Origin: Carcharhinus amblyrhynchos
Lineage: Eukaryota
Assembly: GCA_965287045.1 (NCBI GenBank)
Contig: OZ336876.1
Coordinates: forward strand, 1,736,001-1,800,000
DNA length: 64,000 nt
Direction: 5' to 3'
Of this stretch, positions 1 to 64,000 are shown in pieces. The stretch's first letter is position 1, and the number at the start of each line of letters is the position of its first letter. The notes beneath the pieces are model-generated. The model searched no databases. It was not told where the DNA came from and was given only the letters and a program-made list of their open reading frames with translations. The translations under genes and the position numbers were made by a program.

Positions 1-859
1 CTAAATGTCCTCTTTCTGGGAATGGAACTGTTGGGTTTCTGCCATATCCAAACCTTGGTTATGAATCCCATTTGATACGAACTCGAGTCCGGGCCCAGAG
101 TTCGGAAAGAGCATTTACTTTGCTCAAATCAGGTTGTTAACCCGCTAGAGTGACCCAAGATTTAAGAGCTTGGGTAGCGCAGTCGGTTGTTTTCCTGCAC
201 CCAAACCAGGTTGTTTTTGATTTTCACCCCAGGAACTTGATGTCTAAGGAAGGTGGATACATAACGTCGCCATAATTTATCAACTTGTACAATCCCCTCA
301 CATACTTATACTAATGGAAGATGATAAGAGACAGAGTCATTCTGAGTAGCCATTCTTTAAACGGTGTGGCGCAACAAATGTCTTGGCCATTTGCAATGAT
401 CTGTTCCAGCAAGTCAGTGCCATGGGATAATTGTGCGGGAGGCGAAACAGGCACGCAGGCCTGTTCAGAAGGCAGTAATCATCTCAGATTAAGGAAGCTG
501 TCAGTAAAATAGAACTCAGTTTAAAACTCAGTATTTTAATTGATCAGAATTACTTCCTGCCGAAAGTTTCCTCATTTCGAATATAATATTTAATAGAGTC
601 GACTACTTTTGAAATAGAGAAAAACAAACTAAGATTCAAACAATTCTGATTTCGATTGCTGAATTATATTGATGCGAATTTCTGGCAGCATATAGAATCA
701 GATTATAAAATCTGCATTTAGTACAAGGAAAAGATTTATTTTAGCATGTCGCTTCGTACCCGAAATCATTGATGCTCTATAATTTATTTTGCACAACGAG
801 TTGCAAGTTTCTCCCTCCAAGGTACTGACTATACTGGTTGGAAACATATCAGTCTTCTT

Positions 860-3844: not shown

Positions 3845-4010
3845 TATAATCACCACAGTGCAGAAAGAAGCCATTCGGCCCACCAAGTCTGCACTGACTG
3901 CAAGAGCATCCCACCCAGGTTTTCCCCACTTCTTTATCCCTGTTACCCCGCGCATTTATCACGGTTAATGCCCCCAAGCTGCACATTTTTGTACTACGGA
4001 ACTTGGCCAA
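3845..4010 (-). mobile_element. Partial HE1-like SINE
   Basis: cagtgcagaaagaagccattcggcccaccaagtctgcac tail, as in the other copies. Confidence 0.6.
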
Positions 4011-5129
4011 GGAGCCAACAGATGTTTTAGGAGAGAGTGATGCAGATTAAAAACATCGCCAAGTACCCCCGGAATGAAGAACATGTTAAAACTAGGTAGT
4101 CAATTTCTTTTAGGGCATCCAATTATTAAGACATTGGCTTTATGAAATATTAAGCACACACCTTTGCACGTTTGGTCCCTGAATTCTCTGCCCCTCTCGT
4201 CTCATCCTCTGAATCTGTCCTTAACAAGCGCCTCATATGATATAACTTTACAAAGTTCAAAAGACGATTTCATGTTAAATGCATACTTGCGATGTGGGCA
4301 TTTTTGCAAGGACAATATTAATTCAAAGTTCATCCTGAGAAGATAATGGCGAGTTGTCTTAAAACTATACAGACAATGATGCGCAGGGGCCCCCAGGTTG
4401 CTGTTAGTGAGCGAGGTCCTGGATTTTTACACGGCAACAGAAAACAAATGCAAAATAATCCCAGGTCAAGATAGCCAGTGACTTGGATGGGAACTTGCAG
4501 TTGACGGTTTTTCAAGGCACCCGCTATCATTGTCCTCCAAGGTTGCAGAGATCGCGGGACGGGTAAGTACTGTGCAAGAGGCGGAGGCTAGCTACTGCAG
4601 TGCACACTGCTGCCACTGTGTGTCGCTGGTGGAGGGAATGCAAGTATAAGGCGGATGGGTGGCAATCAAGCGCGCATTTTCATGAATGTCTTTGATATTC
4701 TTGAGGGTTTGCGGAGCTACACAAATTCAAACAGGATACAGCATCTTAAATATTTCAATCTTAAGGGCGCATCAAGGGCAAACATAGTAATAAAAATAAA
4801 TATTGGCATATTTTATTTAAACACTGCTCATGTTAGGCTGCAGTGACATTAAACAAGCGATGCATTCCTTTTAGATTCAAATTCATTGAGCTGAAGGATC
4901 TTGTGCACACAAACAAAGCAGATTTTGTAAAAAGAAACTTCATAAAACTGATCAGGTGGAATACTGAATATTGTGTTGAATTCCTGGCACCTCAAATTAT
5001 GAGGGATTTGATAAGATCCTTACTGGGATGTTGCAACTGCATCATTTCTCTTACATGGAGGGAATATATACATTATTAAATTAGCATCAGTAGAACTGTT
5101 CAAATTCTAAATATTTTGATAACATAAAC

Positions 5130-17490: not shown

Positions 17491-17960
17491 ACGTGAAGAG
17501 ATAATCCAAAACGCCAGTTACTAGCCTAGGAAAAGGTCGCAGGCCGTTATTTTGTTGTCAGCCTACATTTACAATCACTTTTCTGAGCCAGGAGTTTTGT
17601 GCGCAAGGCCGAGACTTGAAACATGTTAATAGCAATCGGACGTTAATTACTCTAGTGCATGATGTCTTACACGGTAGGAACGAGACGTCGTGAGATATGA
17701 GCTCTTGGAGCAAAATGAATCAAAGGGTATGGGAAGCATGGGTTGAGAGGTGGGGGTAGGTCGGGAAGCATATTACATGATCATCCATGAGTATAGTGAA
17801 TTGGGGAGCAGACTCAAATGTCCTACAACTCCTAGTTTCTACACTTCTACGAATGTATTACCGTTGAGGTTTATAATAAATAACATCATGTCTAGTATAC
17901 AAATCATAGGGAGTTCTCTCAGGGTTCATTGTGTAATACATATCTCTGAAATATCTTTTC

Positions 17961-18962
17961 AGTTACAAGTGGTGTACCTCAAGGATCTGTTTTGGGGCCA
18001 CTGCTGTTTGTCATTTTTATAAATGACCTAGATGAGGGTGTAGAAGGATGGATTAGTAAATTTGTTGACTACACCAAAGTTGGAGGAGTTGTAGACAGTG
18101 AGGATGGATGTTACAGTTTGCAGAAGGACATAGATAAGCTGCAGAACTGGGCCGAGAGGTGGCAGATGGAGTTTAATATAGAAAAGTGTGAGGTGATTCA
18201 CTTTGGTAAGAGTAACAGGAGTACAGAATATAGGGCTAATGGAAGGACTCTTAGTAGTGTTGACGACCAGAGAGATCTCGGGGTACATGTGCATAGCTCC
18301 CTGAAAGTTGGCACCCAGGTTGATCAGGTTGTTAAGAAGGCGTACAGTGTGTTAGCTTTTATTGGTAGAGGGATTGAATTTCGGAGCCGTGAGATCATGT
18401 TACATCTGTACAAAACTCTGGTGCGGCCGCACTTGGAGTATTGCGTACAGTTCTGGTCGCCACATTATAAGAAAGATGTGGAGGCATTGGAAAGGGTGCA
18501 GAGGAAGTTTACCAGGATGTTGCCTGGTATGGTGGGAGGGTCTTATGAGGAAAGGCTGAGGGACTTGAGGTTATTTTCATTGGAGAGAAGATGGTTACGA
18601 GGTGACCTGATTGAGGCATACAAGATGATCAAAGGATTGTATAGGGTGGACAGTGAAAGCCTTTTACCTCGGATGGTGATGGCTAACACAAGGGGACATA
18701 GCTTTAAATTAAGGGGTGGTAATTATAGGGCGGATGTCAGAGGCAGGTTCTTTACTCAGAGGGTAGTAATGTCGTGGAATGCCCTGCCTGCAGCAGTTGT
18801 GGACTCGCCAACTTTAAGGGCGTTCAAATGGTCAGTGGATAGGCATATGGATAACATTGGAATAGTTTAGGTTAGAGGGTCATTAGATTAGTTCCACTGG
18901 TCGGCGCAACATCGAGGGCCGAAGGGCCTGTACTGCGCTGTAATGTTCTATGTCTATGTTCT
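17961..18962 (+). mobile_element. Young 5'-truncated CR1 LINE (RT C-terminus plus 3' UTR)
   Basis: ORF 17992-18870: GPLLFVIFINDL...KFVDYTK (FADD mutated)...LYKTLVRPHLEYCVQFWSP...RFFTQRVVMSWNALP; tail tgttctatgtctatgttct. Confidence 0.95.
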
Positions 18963-23083: not shown

Positions 23084-23148
23084 TACCCATCTTTGACTTG
23101 CATGCACATATGATGGAAAACATTGTTCGTTGGCTAATTTGTACTCAC

Positions 23149-23428
23149 CCATTACAGTTACTCTTATAACTGCCCGATCGTTTCCTACTCAGGACCAGCA
23201 AATAGACACAACGGTAGTTTCCTCTGTCTTCGGAAGTTACGTTGGGTTTGGTGAAGGCCACAGACGTATTTGAGTCGGTTTTAGCTTCGAAAATCATATG
23301 TCCGCCTCTGAATATATTAAAACATTTGGGACCATCGAGGCCAACTCCACACTTAATGATGCTGATCCCTCCTGCAAGTGCAAAACTCGAAATTGGATCC
23401 AAGCTCAAGACTGGCTTTGGAAGGCGAC
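23149..23428 (-). CDS. Gene A C2-type Ig-like domain exon (LILR/KIR/FcR-like), possibly frameshifted near its 3' end
   Basis: Acceptor ttttttctgcgaattcag|GT, phase 1. Encodes RLPKPVLSLDP...GG...IKC...F...NVTSEDRGNYRCVY, with the LPKP start and the D-x-G-x-Y-x-C motif. The gtgagt donor gives 280 nt (out of frame); the alternative donor AAGA|gtaact at 23162 gives 267 nt (in frame). Confidence 0.85.
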
Positions 23429-25361: not shown

Positions 25362-26479
25362 CTACGAATCATAACACCACTACCAACATGCTAGGGATTA
25401 CCACTGACCAGATACAGTACTGGACCAACTATGCATCAAGACTAGGTCAAATTTGAACTCTGTCACAAGTAACTCACGTTCTGTCGTCCCAAATCATGGC
25501 CAATATCTGCAAAGCTCAAGTCAGAAGCATAACTAAATACACTTTACTTATGTTGATGGCTTGAGCCATCCAGGACAAAGCAAATGGTTTGAGTCGTACC
25601 CCATCGACCACCTTCAAAAGACATTTACTCCACCTTCAGCGGGCAGTGACAGCAATGTATGCCATTTACAAAATGTACGGCAGCAACTCACCAAAGCTCC
25701 TTAGACAACACCTTTGAAATCAAGGGGCGCTTTCATGTAGAAGAGCAGGGTCAGCAAACGCAAGGGGGCAGAAGTTCCCCTCCCATCACCACCTTGGCCC
25801 CTATCATCGTTCACTTACTGTTGCTGCATTAAAATGCTGAAACTTTTTCCGAACAACATTGTGGGCGTAAACTAATAACATCGCTGACAACAGTACAAGA
25901 AGGGCAATTGTACATAGGCAATACAAATGTCAGCCTAGCTGTCGACGTCCACGCCCGGGGATATAATTGGGAACAAAATATCGCATAATAGTTGATGCTC
26001 AAAATGTCTGACAACTGTTTAAAAGTGTCCTCATGGGATTTCCCAATTAGTGTTTGTGAACTCACACACCTTCCCAAATATCCGGTACATTTCCCAAATT
26101 CTAAGCATCCCACATATCCCACATATGCTACATATAACCTTACAGTTAATCAGGGCATAGCTACCGCCATATCCTCCCAGAAGGCCACTCAAAGTTCCTT
26201 GAAATCCACACTGAAAAAACTCACTTTGGTCTAGATTTCCATCACCTGCCTAAACATCTGTTTATTATTCATATTGTGTGTGTCTGAGCCACTTACTGTA
26301 TGGCAATAGCTGCCTTGAGCCATTACAGGATATTTGGTACAGAATAAAGTGCAACACAACATAACAACATTTTAAGAATTAAATTGATTGTCATAACAAT
26401 CATGCACGAATAAAGTTTCTGGCATTTCAATTGTTATGAAGATCACTAACTCACCATACCATTAACTCAGATTTGATTA

Positions 26480-27716
26480 AACTATTGGTATGTTTTGAGG
26501 ATGTAACTAGTAGAGCTGATTCAGGAGATCAAATGGATGTGGTTTATTTAGGGTTTCAGAAGGCGTTCCACAAGATCTCACATAATAGACTACTAGGTAA
26601 ATTTAAAGCACACAGGATGGCAGGTAATATCTTGAAGTGCATAGAGGGCTGGCTAGCAGATGGGAAACAAAGGGTTAGCATACATGAGCCTTTTTCTGAT
26701 TGGCAATCAGTGACTGGTGGTTTTCTACGAGGATCTGTGCTAGGACTCCAGCTGTCCACATTACATATTAATGATTTGAAAGAGGAAACTGAATATATTA
26801 TGTCCAAGCATTCGACGAATAAAAGTTGGTAGGGAAGATGTGCTGTGAGATGGGTGCAGAGATGCTTCTGCGTGATTTGGAGAGGCTGAGTGTGTGAGCA
26901 TCTGCATGACATATGCAGTATACTATGGATAAATGCAAGGTTATCGACGTTGGTAGCAACAATAGGAGGACAGGTTACTATGTGGATGGGTGTAAATTGA
27001 GAGAAGTGTATGCTGAATGAGACCTTGAAATCCTCGTGCATCAGTCTTTCAAAGTAAGCCCACAGGTAGGAAAGAAGGCAAATGGTATTTTGGCCTTCAT
27101 AACGAAAACATTTGAACAGTGGGATAGGGAGGTTTAACTGCTAGTTTATAAGGCGTTGATGAAGCCACGCCCGGCGTATTGTGTGGCGTTTTAGTGTCCT
27201 TCTCTGAGGAAGAATGCCCTTGGTATAGAGGGAGTGCAGCAATATTTTATTAGGCTGATTCCTGGCTTGGCAGGTCTGCGCTATGAGGGGAGTCTAGGGA
27301 GGTTGGGATTATATTCAATGGAGTTTAGAAGACTAAGAAAAAATCTAATAGAAACTTCTAAAATTCTAACAGTGTTAGACAAGGTAGATTCAGAATGAAT
27401 GTTCCTCATGATGGGGAAGTCCAGAACGAGGGGAAATGGTTTGAGAATAAGAGAACTGACTGAAGGAAAACTTTTTCATCCAGAGGTGGTGCGTGTGTGG
27501 AATTCAGTATCACAAAACGTAGTTGAGGCCAAAACGCTGTGTGATTTCAAGAATAACGTATATAGCTCTTGGGGCTAAAGGGATGAAGAGATATGGGATG
27601 AAAGAAGGATCAGGGTATTGAATTCGATGATCAGCCATGATCAAGATGAATGGCGGAGCAGAACCGAAGGGTCGAATGACCTACTGTTGTTTCTAATTTT
27701 TATGTTTCTATGTTTC
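26480..27716 (+). mobile_element. Decayed CR1 LINE (RT plus 3' UTR)
   Basis: ORF 26473-26832: DVVYLGFQKAFHKISH...GSVLGLQL...INDL; tail tatgtttctatgtttct. Confidence 0.9.
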
Positions 27717-54523: not shown

Positions 54524-56199
54524 AACTGTTTGCTTTGCAATGGACATTCGTTTTGCTATTTCTTACTTTTGTAGATTAACAATGAACGGGTAGGGAAAAC
54601 CTACGATCGCATGCTGAACTTGGACGTTTGGAGTTTCCGAGTCCTGGTAAAAATAGCGAACACACGTTTTATTTGTTCTTATTTAGGTTAAACTATCTTC
54701 AGCTCAGTGATTATATGTCTTCTTCACTTGTATATAGTTGAAGGGTCAGCCCCATATTCACCAAAAAATATATTGTGTCTTTGGGACAAATTTCTGATAA
54801 ACTATAGTTTGGTGTTTGCTAACCTTAAATAGATAAAAACAGGTAACAGTGTCTTCACCCCCAAATAAACATGACTCCAAGGGAATTCTATCTGATTCAA
54901 AACTAAAAAGAAAATAGCCGACTAGACCCGAACTGTCAATCGAGGCGTTTTTTCCTGCAGTTGAATCCACATTAGTCATTACAGCCCTCGTGTTCTCTCA
55001 CCATTGTGACTTTATTCAGCGTTGACCCCTCTTCCTTAGAATCATATCTAATAGTCATCTTATCGAATAAAATCAAGAAAATGATTTCCTCGTACTCACC
55101 AATCTCTTGCTAAGTAAAGTATTGATAGGATATTTTTGACTATCTTGTCTTAATATTCTATTATCTATCTGTAGTTCTCAAGTGCAAATTCCATCTTATT
55201 CTTTATTGCTTTCTTTCTATCTCTCTTCCTGCGTCCCTCTCTTTCTGATGTTCCTCTCTGTCTCTATTTGTCTTGACTTCTTTGCTTTGCTCGCTGTGTC
55301 TCTCCCTCTGCCATTCCCTCCCTCTCTCGTGTACTCTCTCTCTCTATATGCATCTCCTTCTGTCCGTCTAAATGATTGTCTGTCTCTGCTTGATCAAAAT
55401 CTTTACCAGTTTAAGGTACGTATTGGTTCAGCTATCATATCTCCCCTGCTGCAGAGGGGAAATAAGTAACCCAATTCTAGTTATTTTTTACCAATGTGTA
55501 TAAAGATAAAAATCTGATTCAATCCTTGTAAGGCTTTGTTGGAGAGTCGGTGCAGACTCCACTGCACTGAAGGCATTTCAGTAACATGGAGGCCAGAATG
55601 TACTGACAGGGCTGGATTTTACGGCCTCGCTCGTCGTGAAACAATAAAATCAAGCCCGAGGTTGATGGGACATTTTCTGCCCCTTGCCTACTCCAGTTCT
55701 TATGGTGGGCAGGGCGATAAATTTCCGGCCTATGTGTGCTAACCAAAGGATATTGAGAATTGAACTATGCATCATCTTCTAAGTGTGGCCTAATGAAATG
55801 ATAATGGAGCCCACATTTCAGTTTTGTGCTCGAAATACAGTCTAAAGAAGGGATACCGAGACCAGCATTGTGCACAATTCTTCCAAAATTGGTGCAGAAA
55901 ATACTTTACATAACTTCAAGTCAAATTATTCACATTCATTTGTTTCCCCTAGAAGTAAATCTAGACCTTGCTTTGAATTTGCCGTGTTGATGGTAATACA
56001 TATCACAACTTCTGTGGTTTTTTCCTTCCATTGATGTGGAAATTTACTTTCTATTCTTGCGCGTATAAGTTCTTATTTTCGAAATATTTCGTAATCTCCA
56101 TACTTTTCCATCACCAAAAAGAACATAATAATTTTAGCATTTTGAAATGTATTTTCCAAACTATGCTCATTTCTCCGTAGGGACATACAAGGAAACAAA

Positions 56200-58232
56200 A
56201 CAGGGACATACGTTGACTATTCGGCCACTTCTATCCTCCTCGACGATTTAATAAGATCGTGGCTGATCTGATTTTGTCTTTCACTGCACATTCACCAAAA
56301 CCTTCGGAGCATCGAAACATAGGAATTTGAGCTGAAGTAGGCAAATCCTGCCCTTCGAGCCTGCTCCGCCATTCAATCAGATCATGGCTGTCCCATGTCT
56401 CACTATCCGTTTTTTTTATTAGCAACACATCTATCTCCTTCCTGAAACCATTCAATGAATCAGACTCCATCGCGTTATGTTGCAGCGAGTTCCACAAATT
56501 CTCCACGCTCTCTGAGAAGTGGTTCCTCCTCAGTCCAGTTTTAAATCCACCTCCTCAGAACCTACACCTGTTACCACATGCTCGATATAGCCTCATAAAG
56601 GAATGAAATTAGGGGTACAGAGGTTGCAAATATACCTTCATCCATCTGAGAGTGAAATAAAATGTTGTTTCCTCTTTCCCGTGGTTGAGAATCTTTGGAG
56701 CTCTTTTCCTCAAAAAGCAGGGCAGGCAGGTGCATTGTGAGGGTTGGATAACCTATTCACAAACAAGGGAGAAGGGACCAACATTTGGCAGATGGAACTT
56801 AATGTGGACAAGTGTGAGGTTACCATCTGTGGTAGAAAATAATAGAATGTCAAATGATTAGCTAAATACATAAATTAGCTGGAGAAGAGAGACCACTTGG
56901 TCTACATTTACTTTATTATTCCCTTTTAAAATTTTATATACATCGATCTGATACCCTCTTATCCTTCTAAATGCCAATGAGTATAAACCAAACTGTTTAA
57001 TATTCCCTCTGATGTCAACCATTTCTTCCCCAGAATCAATCTGATGAATCTCCTCTGACCCTCCTCCAATGCCACCATATCCTTCCTCGAATGAGAGAGA
57101 AACTAAGCACAATATTCCAGCTTTGGTCTGACCAGCACCCAATACGGTTTTAACAACAGTTCTCTGTTTCAGTACTCCAGTCCCTTTGCAATATATGCCA
57201 TCATTCCGATTTGCTTTTTTCATTACATTCTGCACCTGCATGCAGGCTTTCTGAGATTCATGAATATAGACACCCATATCAGTCTGCCAGGACGCATTTT
57301 GAATCTCCTTTCCATTTAGCTAACAATTTGTTCTTTTTTTTATCTGCCTAAGTGGACAACTTCACATTTATCCACATTAAAATCAATCTGCCAAATTTTG
57401 GTGCGCTCTCCCTTGTTTGTCAATGGAGTATCTACCACTCACTTCGAACTATTCCATTTACCTGCCTGCCCTGCTTTATGCGAAAAAAAAGAGTTCCAAA
57501 GATTCTCAACCATGGGAGGTGGAAAATAAAATCCTTTCTCCCTCTCAAACGAACAAAAACTTATTTGTAACTTGTGTACCCCTAATTTCATTCCCATCCA
57601 CAAGTAGAAGCATCCATTTTCCCATGCTTCATGCTTCTGTGTCATCCACAAGCTTACACTTTTTTTTCTGCAAAGACAAAATATTTTATGCAGTTCTGGA
57701 ATTCACATTTTTGGAGACATGTGAAAGCACTGGGAAGTGTGCATTGGGTATACACCAGGAAGTTTCTTGGGTTGGAGTTCTTAAATTGTGGCAAACATAA
57801 ATAGATTAGGGTTGTTTTCCATGAAGCACAGGAGATTGTATGACATTATTAGTGACATAGATAGACTAAATGGGGTGGGCGGGGTGGGGGGGGGGGCGGG
57901 GGTGGGGGAGTTGATCTTTCCCCTTGTTGCAGGAATGAATGACCGGAGGGTAAGATTTAATATGAGTTGAAGGAGGTTTGGAAGGAATTTGAGGACATAT
58001 TTCTTCATCCGTAGAGTGGTAGGAAACTAGAACCCTCTGGCTCACATGATAGTGCAGAGAGCCTCACAATATTTACAAAATACTTTAACGTGCACTTGCG
58101 ACAATAAGACGTAATAGTCGATGCATTAAATACTTGATGTGGGATGAGAAAATACATGCAGGTATATTTGCCTGCACAGATACCGTGTGCCAATGGGTCC
58201 TGCTGTGCTGTAGAAATCTTTGAATCTATGAT
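56200..58232. mobile_element. Cluster of CR1 fragments (minus strand 56200-57410, plus strand 57680-58232) with an internal inverted duplication
   Basis: ORF 56858-57277 GVYIHESQKACMQVQNVMKKAN...GLYSLAFRRIRG; CR1 tails at both ends. Confidence 0.8.
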
Positions 58233-60284
58233 GTTATGAACTGTAACAACAAATGACAAGCGGAGAACTGTTCCTTCTGTAACATCAGAACGCGCTTGTG
58301 GGGGAGATGTCATAACACCAGCACCAGTAGAGAGAAAGAGATAAAAAACATTTATTGAGGAAATGAAATTATCACAATATTGCGGCATAGCAATTAACAT
58401 ATCACATTTTAAAGCTTTCAAAAAAAAAACAATAGAACTGCTTCCCCAGCAATTGGCAGGGCCAACGTTTATCTCCAAAACGGCAAGTCGAGTTTGACCC
58501 GTAGTTTCGGGGTATTAAATATTACCTGGTTTCAGCGCTAACTGGGGAATCTGGTGAGGGGGGAAATGAAACCTGCATTCATCAATTTACAGAACATCTT
58601 TTGTTTGAAATGTGTGAAATAGTTAGATCCGGCGCATAATCATTGTCTCGTCCTTAACACCAAATTATCCTCCTGGCACTCAGCCCAGCAGGTATTTCCT
58701 CTCCACACCCCCCTCCCCAGGTAACAAATGGTAAATCCTATATTCCTTCAGGCCATGTTAATTCCAACGATATTCGCTTTCTTATGAATATCAGTAAATT
58801 AGTGGGGACCATTATCGTGCAGCTTGCTAAAGCTTTTTAAAATTCCACACAGCACTAGAACCCGTCAATAATGATCAGGGTCATTAAGCTATTATTTTTC
58901 ACCTCGAGTATATCTTTGACCCTCTTTATGCAAATTGCTTGGTGGAAACCTTAGCAAAATTGCACACCCCAGATTGCCCAGTTCCTGGGATGGAGAGAAC
59001 AGTTTGCATCTTGCAATGAAGCCACACACAAAAAAAATGATGCAGTCGCAATTAGCAAAAGCAAAATTTTGATGCACAGTTTTGAATAATTTTTGATGCA
59101 TAGATTTTCCTGCACAGAAATATACTATTATCCTACCTGGAGAATTGTACCTCATACTTTGCAGCACGCCTCAGAAATTGACGGTGTAAAACAAAGATTC
59201 ACTTGAATAATGTAATGATCAGAGTGGTACACTCTGAGGACAGTGTTGCATTCAATCTAATGTACAAGATAAGCTTCAGATCACTAAATTTGCTCAAAAT
59301 GTTAAGTTGTCTCAAAAAGTCGATAGGGGTCAACCATTTGATTTTTTCAAAGAATCCAGACAGAGGTGTCCTGTTAAGGAAGGTGGAACACGTCGGGGCT
59401 ATACCCATCGGAGTTTAGAGAGTAAAGGGCGCACTTATTTAAACATTTAAGAAACTGAGGAGGCGTGAAAGCGCAGAAACGAAGACGATGTTTCATTTGA
59501 TGGTGAATTGAATAATAGGGTGCAATGAAACAAAATTACTCCGCCGTTAAAAAATGAGATGAAGGGATATTTCTAATTCAGAGGGTGTTCAACCTATAGA
59601 GTTCTCTCCCTCAGAGAGCCGTGTAGGCTATGGGATCATCAGTATAATCATGGTTGCATGAGATAGCTTTCTAATCAACAACAGAATCAAGAATTTTGAT
59701 GGAACGGCATTTCACAATTATATCAACACCAGTCTTATTTAAAGGCGTTGCTTGATTGCAAAGTCAAATTGCCTATTGCCGTCCATGTTTCTTTATGTTA
59801 CTTCAACTGAATCGTGCTAATATTGGAGATGCCTTTATCAGGAGGAAAATTAGGAAGATTTCCTTTCGCTTAGTCGTTTATGGAAATCAGACCCCTCCCT
59901 CAAAATGTTATGGGTAGTGAAATGGTGAAGGAGCATTTGCGGTAATAATAGCATCTTTGCATGTATATCAAGAAATATGCAAAGATGATATTGGGTAAAT
60001 GGAATTGAGGTACAGAGCAGATGTCTTATAATTGAATAACAAAATATAGGGGAGTTTCAATAGCCTACTTCTGCTTGCACTGATTGAAAATGCTCATGAG
60101 TTTGACATGTAAGTAGATTTTAACAGTCGGAGTGGGATAGGTTATCTTCGGCGAATATAATTCTCAAGATGACTGTTCACAAACGCACAGACTCTCGGGA
60201 TATTGTTCAGATGGTTCATGTGTTGCTAGTCACTGGATATCCTGCAAAGGGGCGAATCTTGTGCCCAGCACACTCGAATAGCTT

Positions 60285-60350
60285 CTACAGCTTCAGCGTT
60301 GAATAGATAGTGGGATCCTCAGCCTGGACTTTGGGAGTGTCCTTCTGCCG
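60285..60350 (-). CDS. Gene B terminal coding exon: cytoplasmic tail RQKDTPKVQAEDPTIYSTLKL* with ITIM/ITSM-like TIYSTL
   Basis: Acceptor ttgttcatttcag|CGG, phase 0, matching the upstream exon. 66 nt = 21 codons + TAG. The terminal P-T-I-Y-S-T-L resembles the final motif of LILRB-type tails (PSIYATL). Confidence 0.8.
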   Translation of the reverse strand, partial: RQKDTPKVQAEDPTIYSTLKL

Positions 60351-61152
60351 CTGAAATGAACAATGCATTTGGTCAGAAAATCTAGAAATAATCCTGGAAA
60401 TAAGTTTTATATTTCAGTAGCAGCATTGCTCCTGGGAGTAGAGGGGAACACCTCGCTGATCTAAAAAACGCTGATGGTCAGCCAATGGTTACATTTTTAG
60501 ATGAAAGTAACAACCTACGTTAAAGTTGCATAGATGAAGCACAAGAGAAAAACACGGGGAACACAGACCAGGAGAACGAGAGGTGGGACCTTCCCCATAA
60601 ACATGGGCGGGAAGTGATTACACCAGCAATATCTTTTGCTCTAATCATTGATTTGCTTTGGAAAATTTTGCAGGTGCTCACGTCGAAAGGCTTGGAGCAA
60701 ACGACATTCAAAATGGTGGGGGGGGGGGGGGGGGGTGGTGGGTGGGGGGGCGGGGGGAAGTGGGGAAAGGGTGGCGTGGGGCTGTGCGATATGACGTCCT
60801 GCACCATAACACTGCTGACGTATAATTGCCACAACCACATGATGGTGATTGATTCTTGTGTTCCCTTCATTTCCTACAGAGGGAGCAATCCCATACTTCA
60901 CTGTTCAAACATTTGATCACTTCTCTCTCCTTGGACCATTTACAAAAAAAAACATGTTTTAGCTCGTTTTGAAACGTGATAAGAAATTATTTGCCTGATT
61001 GAATATGTAGTCACAACAATTGAGATGATTAGAAAGAAGGACCCAGTGGGAAGAGGAAAAAAAATTTGCATATATCACCCCAACAGAATGTCCGAGTGAA
61101 GTTACAGAATTCACAAGGCTGACAGTATCCAACAGGGGGATGTGTAACTTAC

Positions 61153-61193
61153 ACGTTTTCTCCTCGGATTTTCTTTCAGTTGAAGAACAGCAT
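61153..61193 (-). CDS. Gene B cytoplasmic exon (41 nt): (Y)AVLQLKENPRRKR, second half of ITIM VTYAVL
   Basis: Strong acceptor ttcttttttatctctag|AT and donor CGT|gtaagt. Phase 1 to phase 0. Completes the split Tyr codon T|AT. Confidence 0.82.
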
Positions 61194-61479
61194 CTAGAGA
61201 TAAAAAAGAACCAAATAAAACAGATATTGTTTGGGTGTGCTAATTCTGCGATAGCTTGTTTCGCAGCGATTGTGGCGATGGTTAGTTTATTCATAGTACC
61301 ACCTGTGAAGCATCACTCCGCTCTAGCCTCCCACCGGCTGATCTGCTACTGAAACCATCATCTGAGCATGTGGTCCCTCCAGCCTTCACTTTCCAACTGC
61401 ATTCCTGAATACCCTCGCTCATCTGAGAGGTAAATCCCTGCAGACTGGACTGTTCCACTATACTCCTGGCCCCACTTCA

Positions 61480-61960
61480 TTATTTATGCACGTGCTCCCT
61501 CTAGGTTGGAATGTCCAACCCCATTCCTGGCTCAGGTCTCACATTCCACCTTCTGGAATGTTGAACCCATCGAATCTCATTATTTTCCTGTGCTTAAAAT
61601 TCTTGTCAATCCCAGTGTTTGCTGAAATCCATTGGCCTCTGTTAAATCTGGATTTGATTTTAAAATGCACCTCCTTATTTTCAAATCCCACTGTGGTGTT
61701 TGCCTTCATCTCTGTTGTAACCCTCTCATGCCCCTCGCAGCACCCATGCCCAACCCTCAGAGATTTCTGCGCAATTCTATTTCTCGCTACTTGGCAACCC
61801 CCATACATCCAACCACCCCAATTTTCATCACTGCACCTGTTGCACACGAGCTTCTAGCTGTCTATATTTAAGTAACTGAAACTCCATCTCCAACCCTCTT
61901 CTACATTCTCTAAATAATATTTTCTTCCACCAATACTTTGTTCAGTATCCATCTCTTTAA
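61480..61960 (+). mobile_element. L2-like LINE 3' fragment (opposite-strand relic at ~52140-52530)
   Basis: EIHWPL followed by gatttgattttaaaatg, resembling the L2 LHWLP...RIxFK motif. Confidence 0.5.
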
Positions 61961-62478
61961 TCTCGATTCTCTCGATGGTTCAAACTATAATTGAAGTCTG
62001 GCATCACCAAAGAGCCTGGGTTTTGTACCTACAACCTCTTTGGTAATTCGTTCCATTTGTCAGCCTTTATTATTGGGGATACATATCTGCATCTATGTGT
62101 TCCTGATTTCTTTACTCTGTTGCTGTTCGTTAGTTGCCTATATTTGGCGGCAGAAATTATATCAATAGGTGCCATAAAACTGGGATTGTTGGGCTGGTCA
62201 TCTATCCCCACACAGAAGTTAACATTAAATCGCAAAAACTGAAAAACATCTCAATATCAGACATTGGCGAGCGCAAGAACGAGTTCCTAAACAACTCTTT
62301 CGGGGTCGGGCCCGAAAATTTCTTTCTGTCCTCCCATTCAGAATTGAATCAGAAATAATTAAGCTTTATGCCCGCCAATATTGCATTAAAACAAAATGCA
62401 TGCAAACAGTACGGCTAATGTTGTGACAATCATAATAACAATTCTGGGTGCAAGAAGAAAACAAAACACAAAACTTAC

Positions 62479-62519
62479 AGGTCACAGCTTGGCTGCTTTC
62501 GTCATCAGGCATTGTGGCC
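62479..62519 (-). CDS. Gene B cytoplasmic exon (41 nt): ATMPDDESSQAVT(Y)
   Basis: Acceptor ttctcttatctgaag|G and donor ACCT|gtaagt. Phase 2 to phase 1. Acidic stretch followed by QAVT-Y, as in LILRB (DPQAVTY) and KIR (DPQEVTY). Confidence 0.78.
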
Positions 62520-62699
62520 CTTCAGATAAGAGAAATGGTCAATGAATCACTTTTTGCCACATGTTTCTGGATATTAAAATATTGGGGCAGGTGATGAATG
62601 GATTGTGAACGCATGTCTACCCATCGGATTAAAATCCCCCGTTTATTCATTTCAGTGAAAGCGAAATATTGAATTGAATGTAGCATGCAAAGTTTCATC

Positions 62700-63650
62700 G
62701 TGTTTTGGAGTGTGCGTGACTGTGTTCTGGCACGAATATTTGCTTTCATGAGTGTGTGCAGTGGAATAAGTGTGTGAATCGGCATGTGTGTTTGTATTGG
62801 GATGGATGCGTGTTTTTAATGTGTGTTTCTTTTCTGGTATGAGTGTGTGTTGTGGTATGATTATGTGTGCTGGTGTGAGAGAGTTATTCCGATGTTAGTG
62901 TGTGTTCTCATTTCAGTGTGTGTTCTGATATAAGTGCGTGGACTTGAATGAGCTTGTGATTGTGTGTATGTGTGTGTGTGTGCGCGTGTGTGCGAGTTTG
63001 TGTGTGTGTGTGTGTGCGCGTGCGCGCACGTTGTGGTAAGCGACTGTGTTCTGATGTGTGTTTGTGTTGTCGACTGAGTGTATATTCTGGCGTGCATGTT
63101 TGGCCCAGTATGATTGTGTGTTCTGGTATGAATATCTTTTTTTTCTGGTACGTATGTTTGTGCTGTTGTGACTGAATGCTCTGTTATGAGTGTGTGTTCT
63201 GGCGCAAGTATATTCTGGAGCGTTTTTTTTATTAGTGTGAGCTTTTGTTCTGGTGTGTGTACGCGTGTGTGTATGTGTGGGTATATGTGTGTCTGAGCAT
63301 ATGTGTATGTGTGTGAGTGTGTGTTTGTGTATGTGCATGTGTGCGGATGTGTGTGTATTCCTTTTTGTATGTGTTTTGGCGTGGGAGTATATTTCGTTGT
63401 GAGCGTGTGTTTGGGATGAGTGTGTTTTCTGATATGAATGAGCATGCTGGTATGAATGCGTATGCAAATTTAATTGTGATTAGTGTGAGTGTATTATTAG
63501 ATATGAGTATGTCTTCTGGTATGAATGTTTGTTCTGGTGTGACCTTATAAACTAGTATGAGAGTTTGTTTGTCCGTGTTTGATTAAATGAATGCCAAATA
63601 AGGTTTGTGACTGTGTGCTGGGGTCTGTGAGTGACTGTGGCTGGGATTTA
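62700..63650. repeat. Degenerate 18-bp GT-derived minisatellite (consensus ~gtgtgtgttctggtatga) interleaved with (GT)n
   Basis: Consecutive units gtgtgtgttgtggtatga / ttatgtgtgctggtgtga / gtgtgtgttctcatttca / gtgtgtgttctgatataa. Confidence 0.8.
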
Positions 63651-64000
63651 TGGGAGTTCTAGTTATATTGTAAAATACCATATGCATGTGGGAACTGAAT
63701 ATGGTGGCAATGCAACTGTACCAAGAATAGAGCTGCCAAGTGTTCAAATCCCATCATTGCTGCCTCTGATTTTTAATCTACCGAATTGATGATTTCAATT
63801 AATAAACGTATTACGTTTATTCGAGTCTCCATGGCACAATGGTAGTTTCATTTAGCGTCGTAAAATATCCAGTCAGGAGGTAAATGTATATTCAACACCT
63901 GGTTTGGTCCAATGTGAGTCCAGGTGCACAGGAATGCGGATGGGATCCTAAATTTCTTTTGAATTGGCTGAGCAGACAACTCCGTCAAATGGAAATTAGT

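Follow-up and report, generated by a model that had tools for sequence, protein, structure and literature searches.

The window, that is the whole 64,000-nt stretch analysed here, corresponds to C7:1736001-1800000 in a 2.9-Gb genome and carries, near its end, three small exons on the minus strand. These occupy 62519-62479 (41 nt), 61193-61153 (41 nt) and 60350-60285 (66 nt, with the stop codon at its end). In the sequence, AG precedes each of the three and GTAAGT follows the first two. The gene continues upstream of the window; for these parts the window numbering is extended past 64000 and 1,736,000 has to be added in order to obtain positions on C7. The features are listed in transcript order, where X1-X4 denote the transcript-like contig sets described below.

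144820-144790 and 144645, minus strand: leader candidates, predicted only (found by pattern)
135949, 112337, 104352, 96894, 93189, 86945 and 68793, minus strand: seven further open Ig exons, predicted only; the exon at 68793 is without the second Cys
67165-66872, minus strand: proximal Ig exon, 294 nt, joined in X1-X4
64692-64603, minus strand: uncharged transmembrane (TM) exon, 90 nt, joined in X1-X4
64146-64119, minus strand: tail exon c1, 28 nt, joined in X1-X4
62520-64000, minus strand: in-window part of the phase-2 intron between c1 and c2 (1,599 nt in whole; joint 'skips 1599')
62479-62519, minus strand: cytoplasmic exon c2, 41 nt, phase 2 in and phase 1 out; its last base is the T of the ITIM Tyr codon
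61194-62478, minus strand: phase-1 intron splitting the Tyr codon, 1,285 nt, GTAAGT...AG (joint 'skips 1285, CT..AC')
61153-61193, minus strand: cytoplasmic exon c3, 41 nt, phase 1 in and phase 0 out; it starts with the AT of the Tyr codon and completes VTYAVL
60351-61152, minus strand: phase-0 intron, 802 nt, from sequence and contig joint
60285-60350, minus strand: last coding exon c4, 66 nt including the stop codon, carrying the ITSM/ITIM-like TIYSTL
58351-60284, minus strand: 3′ UTR of ~1.9 kb, AATAAA from 58356, cleavage site inferred

The appearance of the splice sites is insufficient as proof of such exons, because a chance background of 56 candidate micro-exons (25-59 nt, with pyrimidine tract, AG and GTRAG) is present on the two strands of the window. 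Five runs (X1-X5) are listed over the region. None is recorded as RNA and the tag 'RNA?' of X1-X4 is a guess; for this reason these four were judged by their intron-spanning joints. All four come from a single study, seem to represent two data sets each deposited twice, and derive from a ~97%-identical relative: 52 differences and 12 gaps separate the source of the runs from the window's individual over about 1,957 nt. Such contigs show presence only, since rare forms are dropped, and absence, level and strand are not readable from them.

One contig per run in X1-X4 carries the joint 61153>60350 as well as 62479>61193, which reads CT..AC on the plus strand; for X1-X3 this was seen over window positions 56000-64000. 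The contigs across 61153>60350 contain one substitution in the last codon of c3, which explains why the 802-nt intron is listed as a joint of 805 with three letters between. On the stretch reaching 6.2 kb past the window, five consecutive canonical junctions (Ig>TM>c1>c2>c3>c4) occur in all four 'RNA?' runs, and the eight joints listed there are these five and three within a repeat. Hence, in the close relative, an Ig exon, an uncharged TM exon and four tail exons of 28, 41, 41 and 66 nt are spliced in that order. The 3′ UTR contigs extend to 58384 (X1, X2) and 58357 (X3). A processed DNA copy is unlikely, as the X5 contigs span both tail introns with neither joint present. The exons are confirmed as real: the same exons, sizes and phases are found in paralogs and the peptide is kept in five other shark species. 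Chance micro-exons are ruled out by the contig junctions and this conservation, not by splice-site strength. The initial annotation, made from the letters of the window, had placed the three exons exactly where sequence, contig joints and paralog plan put them; its view of a three-exon tail has to be given up, as the fourth exon c1 (28 nt) lies upstream and is joined in the contigs. The TM and Ig exons which it expected past 64000 are present there.

Scripted joining of the 41, 41 and 66 nt exons yields VTYAVL with its Tyr encoded as T|AT across the intron, and 28 residues between the two tyrosines, as had been proposed at the outset and as the joints bear out. The reading frame used in that proposal is fixed by the upstream c1, TM and Ig exons. 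The resulting protein has a tail of 60 residues, a TM segment without charged residue and the two motifs VTYAVL and TIYSTL. The former is a canonical ITIM. The ITSM consensus is TxYxxV/I; TIYSTL fails this test, having L at Y+3 where V or I is needed, and fits neither strict consensus. The earlier description of the distal motif as ITIM/ITSM-like thus stands, whereas a strict ITSM does not. The tandem spacing, which had been likened to that of inhibitory receptor tails, falls within the family range of 27-30 and next to the 29 of LAIR1.

Taken together, the exons very probably form, once spliced, the 3′ end of a shark gene for a membrane receptor with several Ig domains, likely an inhibitory member of a paired family in a counterpart of the leukocyte receptor complex (LRC). 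By analogy with KIR-L, LILRB, LAIR1 and PIR-B, ligand binding would cluster the receptor. A Src-family kinase would then phosphorylate the two tyrosines; SHP-1/SHP-2 would dock through their tandem SH2 domains and damp activating signals. Phosphorylation of both tyrosines with SHP-1/SHP-2 docking and damping of activation is, on these analogies, probable. Splice forms devoid of tyrosines could act as non-signalling decoys.

The gene upstream is known mainly from prediction. No transcript joint upstream of the proximal Ig exon was seen in the X1-X4 contigs on the stretch to 6.2 kb past the window. The leader candidate lies about 85 kb from the stop codon; a leader found by homology at 180.8 kb proved to be a false match, after which the pattern search was used. 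Many broken Ig exons accompany the open ones, one of the open exons is without its second Cys, and no contig at ≥90% likeness covers most of the proximal Ig exon. At the end of this exon X3/X4 differ in 7 of 60 letters, for which polymorphism, a paralog exon or contig breakage are each possible. The broken exons, the missing Cys and the gap in coverage would suit a decaying gene which is transcribed but no longer makes a working receptor. Against such decay, an open frame runs through the TM exon and every tail exon, all with intact sites; a leader candidate and seven Ig exons with both Cys are likewise open, and the TM and c2 pieces show no difference from the related organism compared with ~3% in the UTR. 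We regard decay as very unlikely. Two oddities were seen in the introns of this part. An inverted partial copy of the neighbouring Ig exon lies on the plus strand in the intron just above the proximal Ig exon (L001 about 3982-4170). Just past the TM donor, L001 about 554-586 (minus strand) matches the acceptor and first part of the last exon at 82% over 33 nt, with GTAAAT after it; it is a possible cryptic mini-exon, with no joint seen in the contigs.

The tail plan is shared by paralogs. DNA downstream of 20 paralogous Ig exons was taken, and in seven of these loci the boundaries of both c2 and c3 could be used. The fetched DNA revealed no c2 for paralog I, no c4 for paralog A and no tail exons for paralog N. 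The seven resolved paralogs show TM, 28 (49 in one), 44 and 41 nt, with a last exon of 63-66 nt in those where it could be located. Exon c1 measures 28 nt in seven of eight paralogs and 49 nt in the other. Exon c2 has 44 nt in 7/7 resolved paralogs versus 41 nt here. Exon c3 has 41 nt and an intact donor in six of the eight paralogs examined, the donor being lost in two. The split codon encodes Tyr (T|AT or T|AC) in 6/7 resolved paralogs and Cys in one. By these sequence comparisons, the split Tyr codon is an inherited family intron position and not special to this gene. A phase-1 intron appears to divide a motif Tyr in human LILRB and SLAM-family genes as well.

Relatives outside this genome follow the same scheme. 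Two protein searches returned sharks only (5 and 22 matches, with cluster members looked up for 10 of the 22). Among the 65 proteins retrieved, 27 distinct tails of this TM type were recognised, and 18 of them keep both motifs, 27-30 residues apart; the closest tails are from Mustelus, so that the gene probably comes from a ground shark. The distal motif ends in V in 18/18 distinct two-motif tails of relatives and in L in this gene. RefSeq-predicted shark proteins named FCRL5-like, LILRA6-like, IGSF1-like and KIR3DL1 (Carcharodon, Cetorhinus, Scyliorhinus, Mustelus and Heptranchias) share the TM and tail plan, and in the RefSeq proteins of two lamniform species the proximal Ig domain is 57-58% identical to that of this gene. 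The gene thus has a c2 one codon shorter than that of its paralogs, and a distal L instead of V.

The surroundings were examined with the proximal Ig exon as query, which gave at least 121 matches (150 scored of 189 candidates). Among the matches listed, 105 of 121 lie on C7 at 0.70-3.35 Mb and 16 on four other contigs. The cluster spans 2.6 Mb and holds inhibitory-type genes together with Arg-bearing activating-type genes. Activating-type TM exons were located at seven places, with the Arg shown in five. In one of them, the next TM-bearing gene upstream (proximal Ig 72% identical), an NxxR is present. Most relatives with activating-type TM have tyrosine-free tails. The 16 matches listed elsewhere form outlying Ig groups of the same family on C29 (35.4 Mb), C31 (23.9 Mb), C108 (0.6 Mb) and C40 (2.7 Mb), with inhibitory-type TM in the C29 and C31 groups. 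Within C7, the 20-kb segments at 1.84-1.86 Mb and 1.98-2.00 Mb are duplicates of 98.7% identity, 138.9 kb apart. The TM exon is broken off at about 30 nt after the proximal Ig exon copies at 1.926 and 2.064 Mb.

Some 0.8 Mb past the cluster, at C7:4.14-4.17 Mb, there is a Tweety gene with an exon whose sole PDB match is TTYH1. Beside it, at 4.116 Mb, a SAC3_GANP Pfam match was found, which is weak (1e-4) and presumably what would be expected of LENG8; this label rests on the one Pfam match and on position. Ttyh1-Leng8 is described as a conserved neighbour group flanking the mammalian LRC clusters (PMC6557307). Speaking against the LRC reading, the family of CNOT3, another LRC marker, is on C35 and in this assembly unlinked to the C7 cluster, for which rearrangement or mis-scaffolding are each possible, and an RPS9-family search was empty. 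Because of the 105 related Ig exons listed, the paired gene types and the nearby TTYH1 and LENG8-like genes, the cluster is likely the shark counterpart of the LRC.

The best solved-structure matches of the proximal Ig domain in PDB are PirB (9e-10), LILRB2 (2e-8) and LILRB1 (5e-8), and FCRL5 is absent among its 34 PDB matches. The whole Mustelus relative P0009, however, matches FCRL5 at 8e-47 versus LILRB at 6e-10. The receptor could therefore be Fc-receptor-like (of FCRL, LITR or XFL type) rather than LILR-like, possibly binding shark immunoglobulin and still with an inhibitory tail. Many relatives are automatically named FCRL5, the window's other Ig exon matches FCRL5 weakly, and the two distal Ig exons searched gave no or marginal PDB matches, the marginal one being FcepsilonRI-alpha (E 0.05). 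Several points weigh against this reading. The FCRL5 score of P0009 is possibly inflated by repeated domains, and automatic names in such families are termed misleading in PMC6557307. The proximal Ig domain favours PirB/LILRB and TTYH1 adjoins the cluster. UFC1 and nicastrin are markers of the FcR region; they reside on C92 and C13, so that the cluster is unlinked to both, and a location in the FcR region was rejected on these two markers. An Fc-receptor-like identity consequently appears rather unlikely to us, and the LILR-like, LRC-type assignment is preferred. The other Ig exon of the window (23148-23428, minus strand) is a lone divergent one (Pfam Ig_3, E 2e-5), of which C7:2.81 Mb holds a 78% copy; downstream of it the window showed neither a TM nor a tail exon. 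Elsewhere in the window, a 306-codon open frame with an RVT_1 domain at 17950-18870 (plus strand) is a likely LINE remnant, and similar fragments also occur near 26440-27140 and 56858-57319.

Comparison with known receptors follows the same lines. The inhibitory LRC receptors (LILRB/PIR-B, LAIR1, KIR-L and chicken inhibitory CHIR) resemble the shark receptor in Ig type, uncharged TM and tandem Tyr motifs about 28-29 apart; they likewise stand in clusters of paired genes with Arg-TM partners and TTYH1 linkage. LAIR1 has SSQEVTYAQL where the shark gene has SSQAVTYAVL, and its motif pair is 29 apart (PMC12191340, Table 4). In contrast to the LRC receptors, the shark gene has up to eight predicted Ig domains, and its motif pair is distributed over three exons, the first Tyr codon being interrupted by an intron. 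The tail of KIR is encoded by two exons, 8-9 (PMC6288254), and in CHIR genes exon 5 is followed by two more, 6-7 (PMC1458963), versus four tail exons here. With four tail exons and up to eight predicted Ig exons, against a two-exon tail and one to three Ig, a KIR or CHIR proper was rejected. FCRL, Xenopus XFL and teleost LITR have similarly long Ig runs and tails with ITIM and ITSM-like motifs. XFL tails are reported to comprise one to five exons, with pairing to NxxR-TM activators (PMC2413239), and LITRs are described as related to both FcR and LRC families and as recruiting SHP-1 (PMC4810170). The shark gene differs from these three by its lack of linkage to the two FcR-region markers and by a proximal Ig nearer to PirB/LILRB.

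The initial annotation had further suggested that skipping of the middle 41-nt exon (c3) would destroy the ITIM, shift the terminal motif out of frame and might thereby serve as a splice switch. By arithmetic, this skip indeed removes both tyrosines. The idea that the split codon or the middle exon is special to the gene does not survive, given the family-wide plan and the fact that all three single-exon skips (c1, c2 or c3) remove both motifs. The ITIM is lost in 7/7 skip combinations of the internal tail exons, so the middle exon is not unique; six of the seven remove both tyrosines and the distal motif survives only the in-frame loss of c1 and c2.

Nevertheless, the intron through the Tyr codon could be a conserved, regulated off-switch, in which more or less frequent skipping of c3, or a different use of the c2 donor, would turn the receptor into a tyrosine-free decoy. 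An isoform departing exactly at the split Tyr is present in 5/8 related genes with two or more RefSeq isoforms (two species), and this intron is the departure point in two distant shark orders; two of the eight genes show no such isoform. Skip routes were tested by back-translation of nine predicted isoform pairs, with shuffled exon peptides as control. Two pairs fit an exact c2-to-c4 skip, namely XP_041036000.1 (Carcharodon) and XP_067836798.1 (Heptranchias), for which 1 and 0 of 2000 shuffles were compatible. Donor read-through accounts for one pair and an Ig-to-last-exon skip for another (8 of 2000 shuffles compatible). P0026, read as c1 joined to c3, fits a c2 skip weakly, with 165 of 2000 shuffles compatible. 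Four have no fit; P0030, P0042 and P0044 match none of the tested routes, and one of the four unfitted pairs becomes a TM-to-last-exon skip after moving the boundary by one residue (without shuffle control). In the present gene, a c3 skip would place a stop 32 nt into the last exon. Junction-dependent decay spares stop codons in the last exon, as an established rule, so this decay would not be expected for the c3-skipped form.

On the other side, the skip joint 62479>60350 is not among the eight joints listed for the gene region in the contigs, from which rare forms are dropped, and both splice sites of c3 are consensus. The isoforms of the relatives are predicted models, and the ITIM is removed by all seven skip combinations through arithmetic alone. 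At least five different routes lead to the loss of the tyrosines (skipping of c3, read-through of a donor, use of other acceptors, skipping of c2, and TM-to-c4), as in leaky splicing of small exons. This variety fits leaky splicing as well as regulation. A regulated off-switch at this intron is judged unlikely, and of the earlier splice-switch proposal there stands the exact skip in predicted isoforms of two relatives, not a skip joint in this gene. We favour a full-length form, the only one seen for this gene, with tyrosine-free forms likely being minor products by several routes. It is equally doubtful that sharks hold a true multi-megabase LRC whose inhibitory members share an ancient regulated off-switch inside the ITIM Tyr codon. 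As part of the off-switch reading, and just as tentatively, paralogs might have hard-wired the motif loss, by a Tyr-to-Cys codon mutation or by c3 donor loss plus gain of a TM Arg.

Precedents for motif loss by splicing exist in several families. CEACAM1-S arises through a 53-nt exon, with frameshift and ITIM loss (PMC2110893), PECAM-1 forms without exon 14 do not bind SHP-2 (PMC5664058), macaque KIR2DL04 skips its 53-nt exon 8 (PMC6288254) and LAIR1d is without ITIMs (PMC12191340). Loss of a small cytoplasmic exon or truncation of the tail removes the inhibitory motifs in these four, as a skip would here. Their isoforms were cloned or sequenced, whereas here the skip is seen in predicted models of relatives and the Tyr codon itself is cut. 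An ITAM motif split by an intron is described as typical of CEACAMs in PMC2110893. No paper on a split ITIM Tyr codon was found in the open-access literature, subscription papers being outside the scope. The micro-exon tail itself is an ordinary receptor architecture with known splice precedents, and the more notable feature is its setting in a likely shark LRC.

With regard to this setting, shark genomes yielded neither LRC-type nor FCRL homologs in a 2014 survey (PMC4016189), which assigned their origin to bony fish. The same open-access search found no paper describing a shark LRC/FCRL cluster. What emerges here is a large paired-receptor cluster beside TTYH1 in a shark, of a family which RefSeq predicts under inconsistent names in five more sharks. 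Wang, Belosevic and Stafford (2021) reportedly treat LRC-like regions in fish and may already cover part of the shark setting. If the assignment is true, LRC-type paired receptors would date to the jawed-vertebrate ancestor and the cluster would provide concrete candidates for inhibitory receptors of shark NK and myeloid cells.

Several paralogs depart from the two-motif tail. Those at C7 about 1.327-1.334 Mb (L022) and C31 about 23.97-23.99 Mb (L037, L054, L055) have an altered start of c3: the split codon is Cys in one, and in the other, where c2 was not found, c3 begins with TT and the last exon apparently stops before any Tyr. The near-identical paralogs at C7 about 2.579-2.597 Mb (L028, L049, L050) and 2.377-2.395 Mb (L029, L051, L052) carry an Arg in the TM (GVRSA versus GVGSA/GIGSA). 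In both, the c3 donor is lost and read-through reaches a stop immediately, which leaves the first ITIM only. Heptranchias P0013 has the same TM Arg and is without the distal Tyr, with a model error being possible. Repeated conversion from inhibitory to bifunctional receptors, of the kind reported for CHIR (PMC1458963), may have taken place in this family, on the count of two events only.
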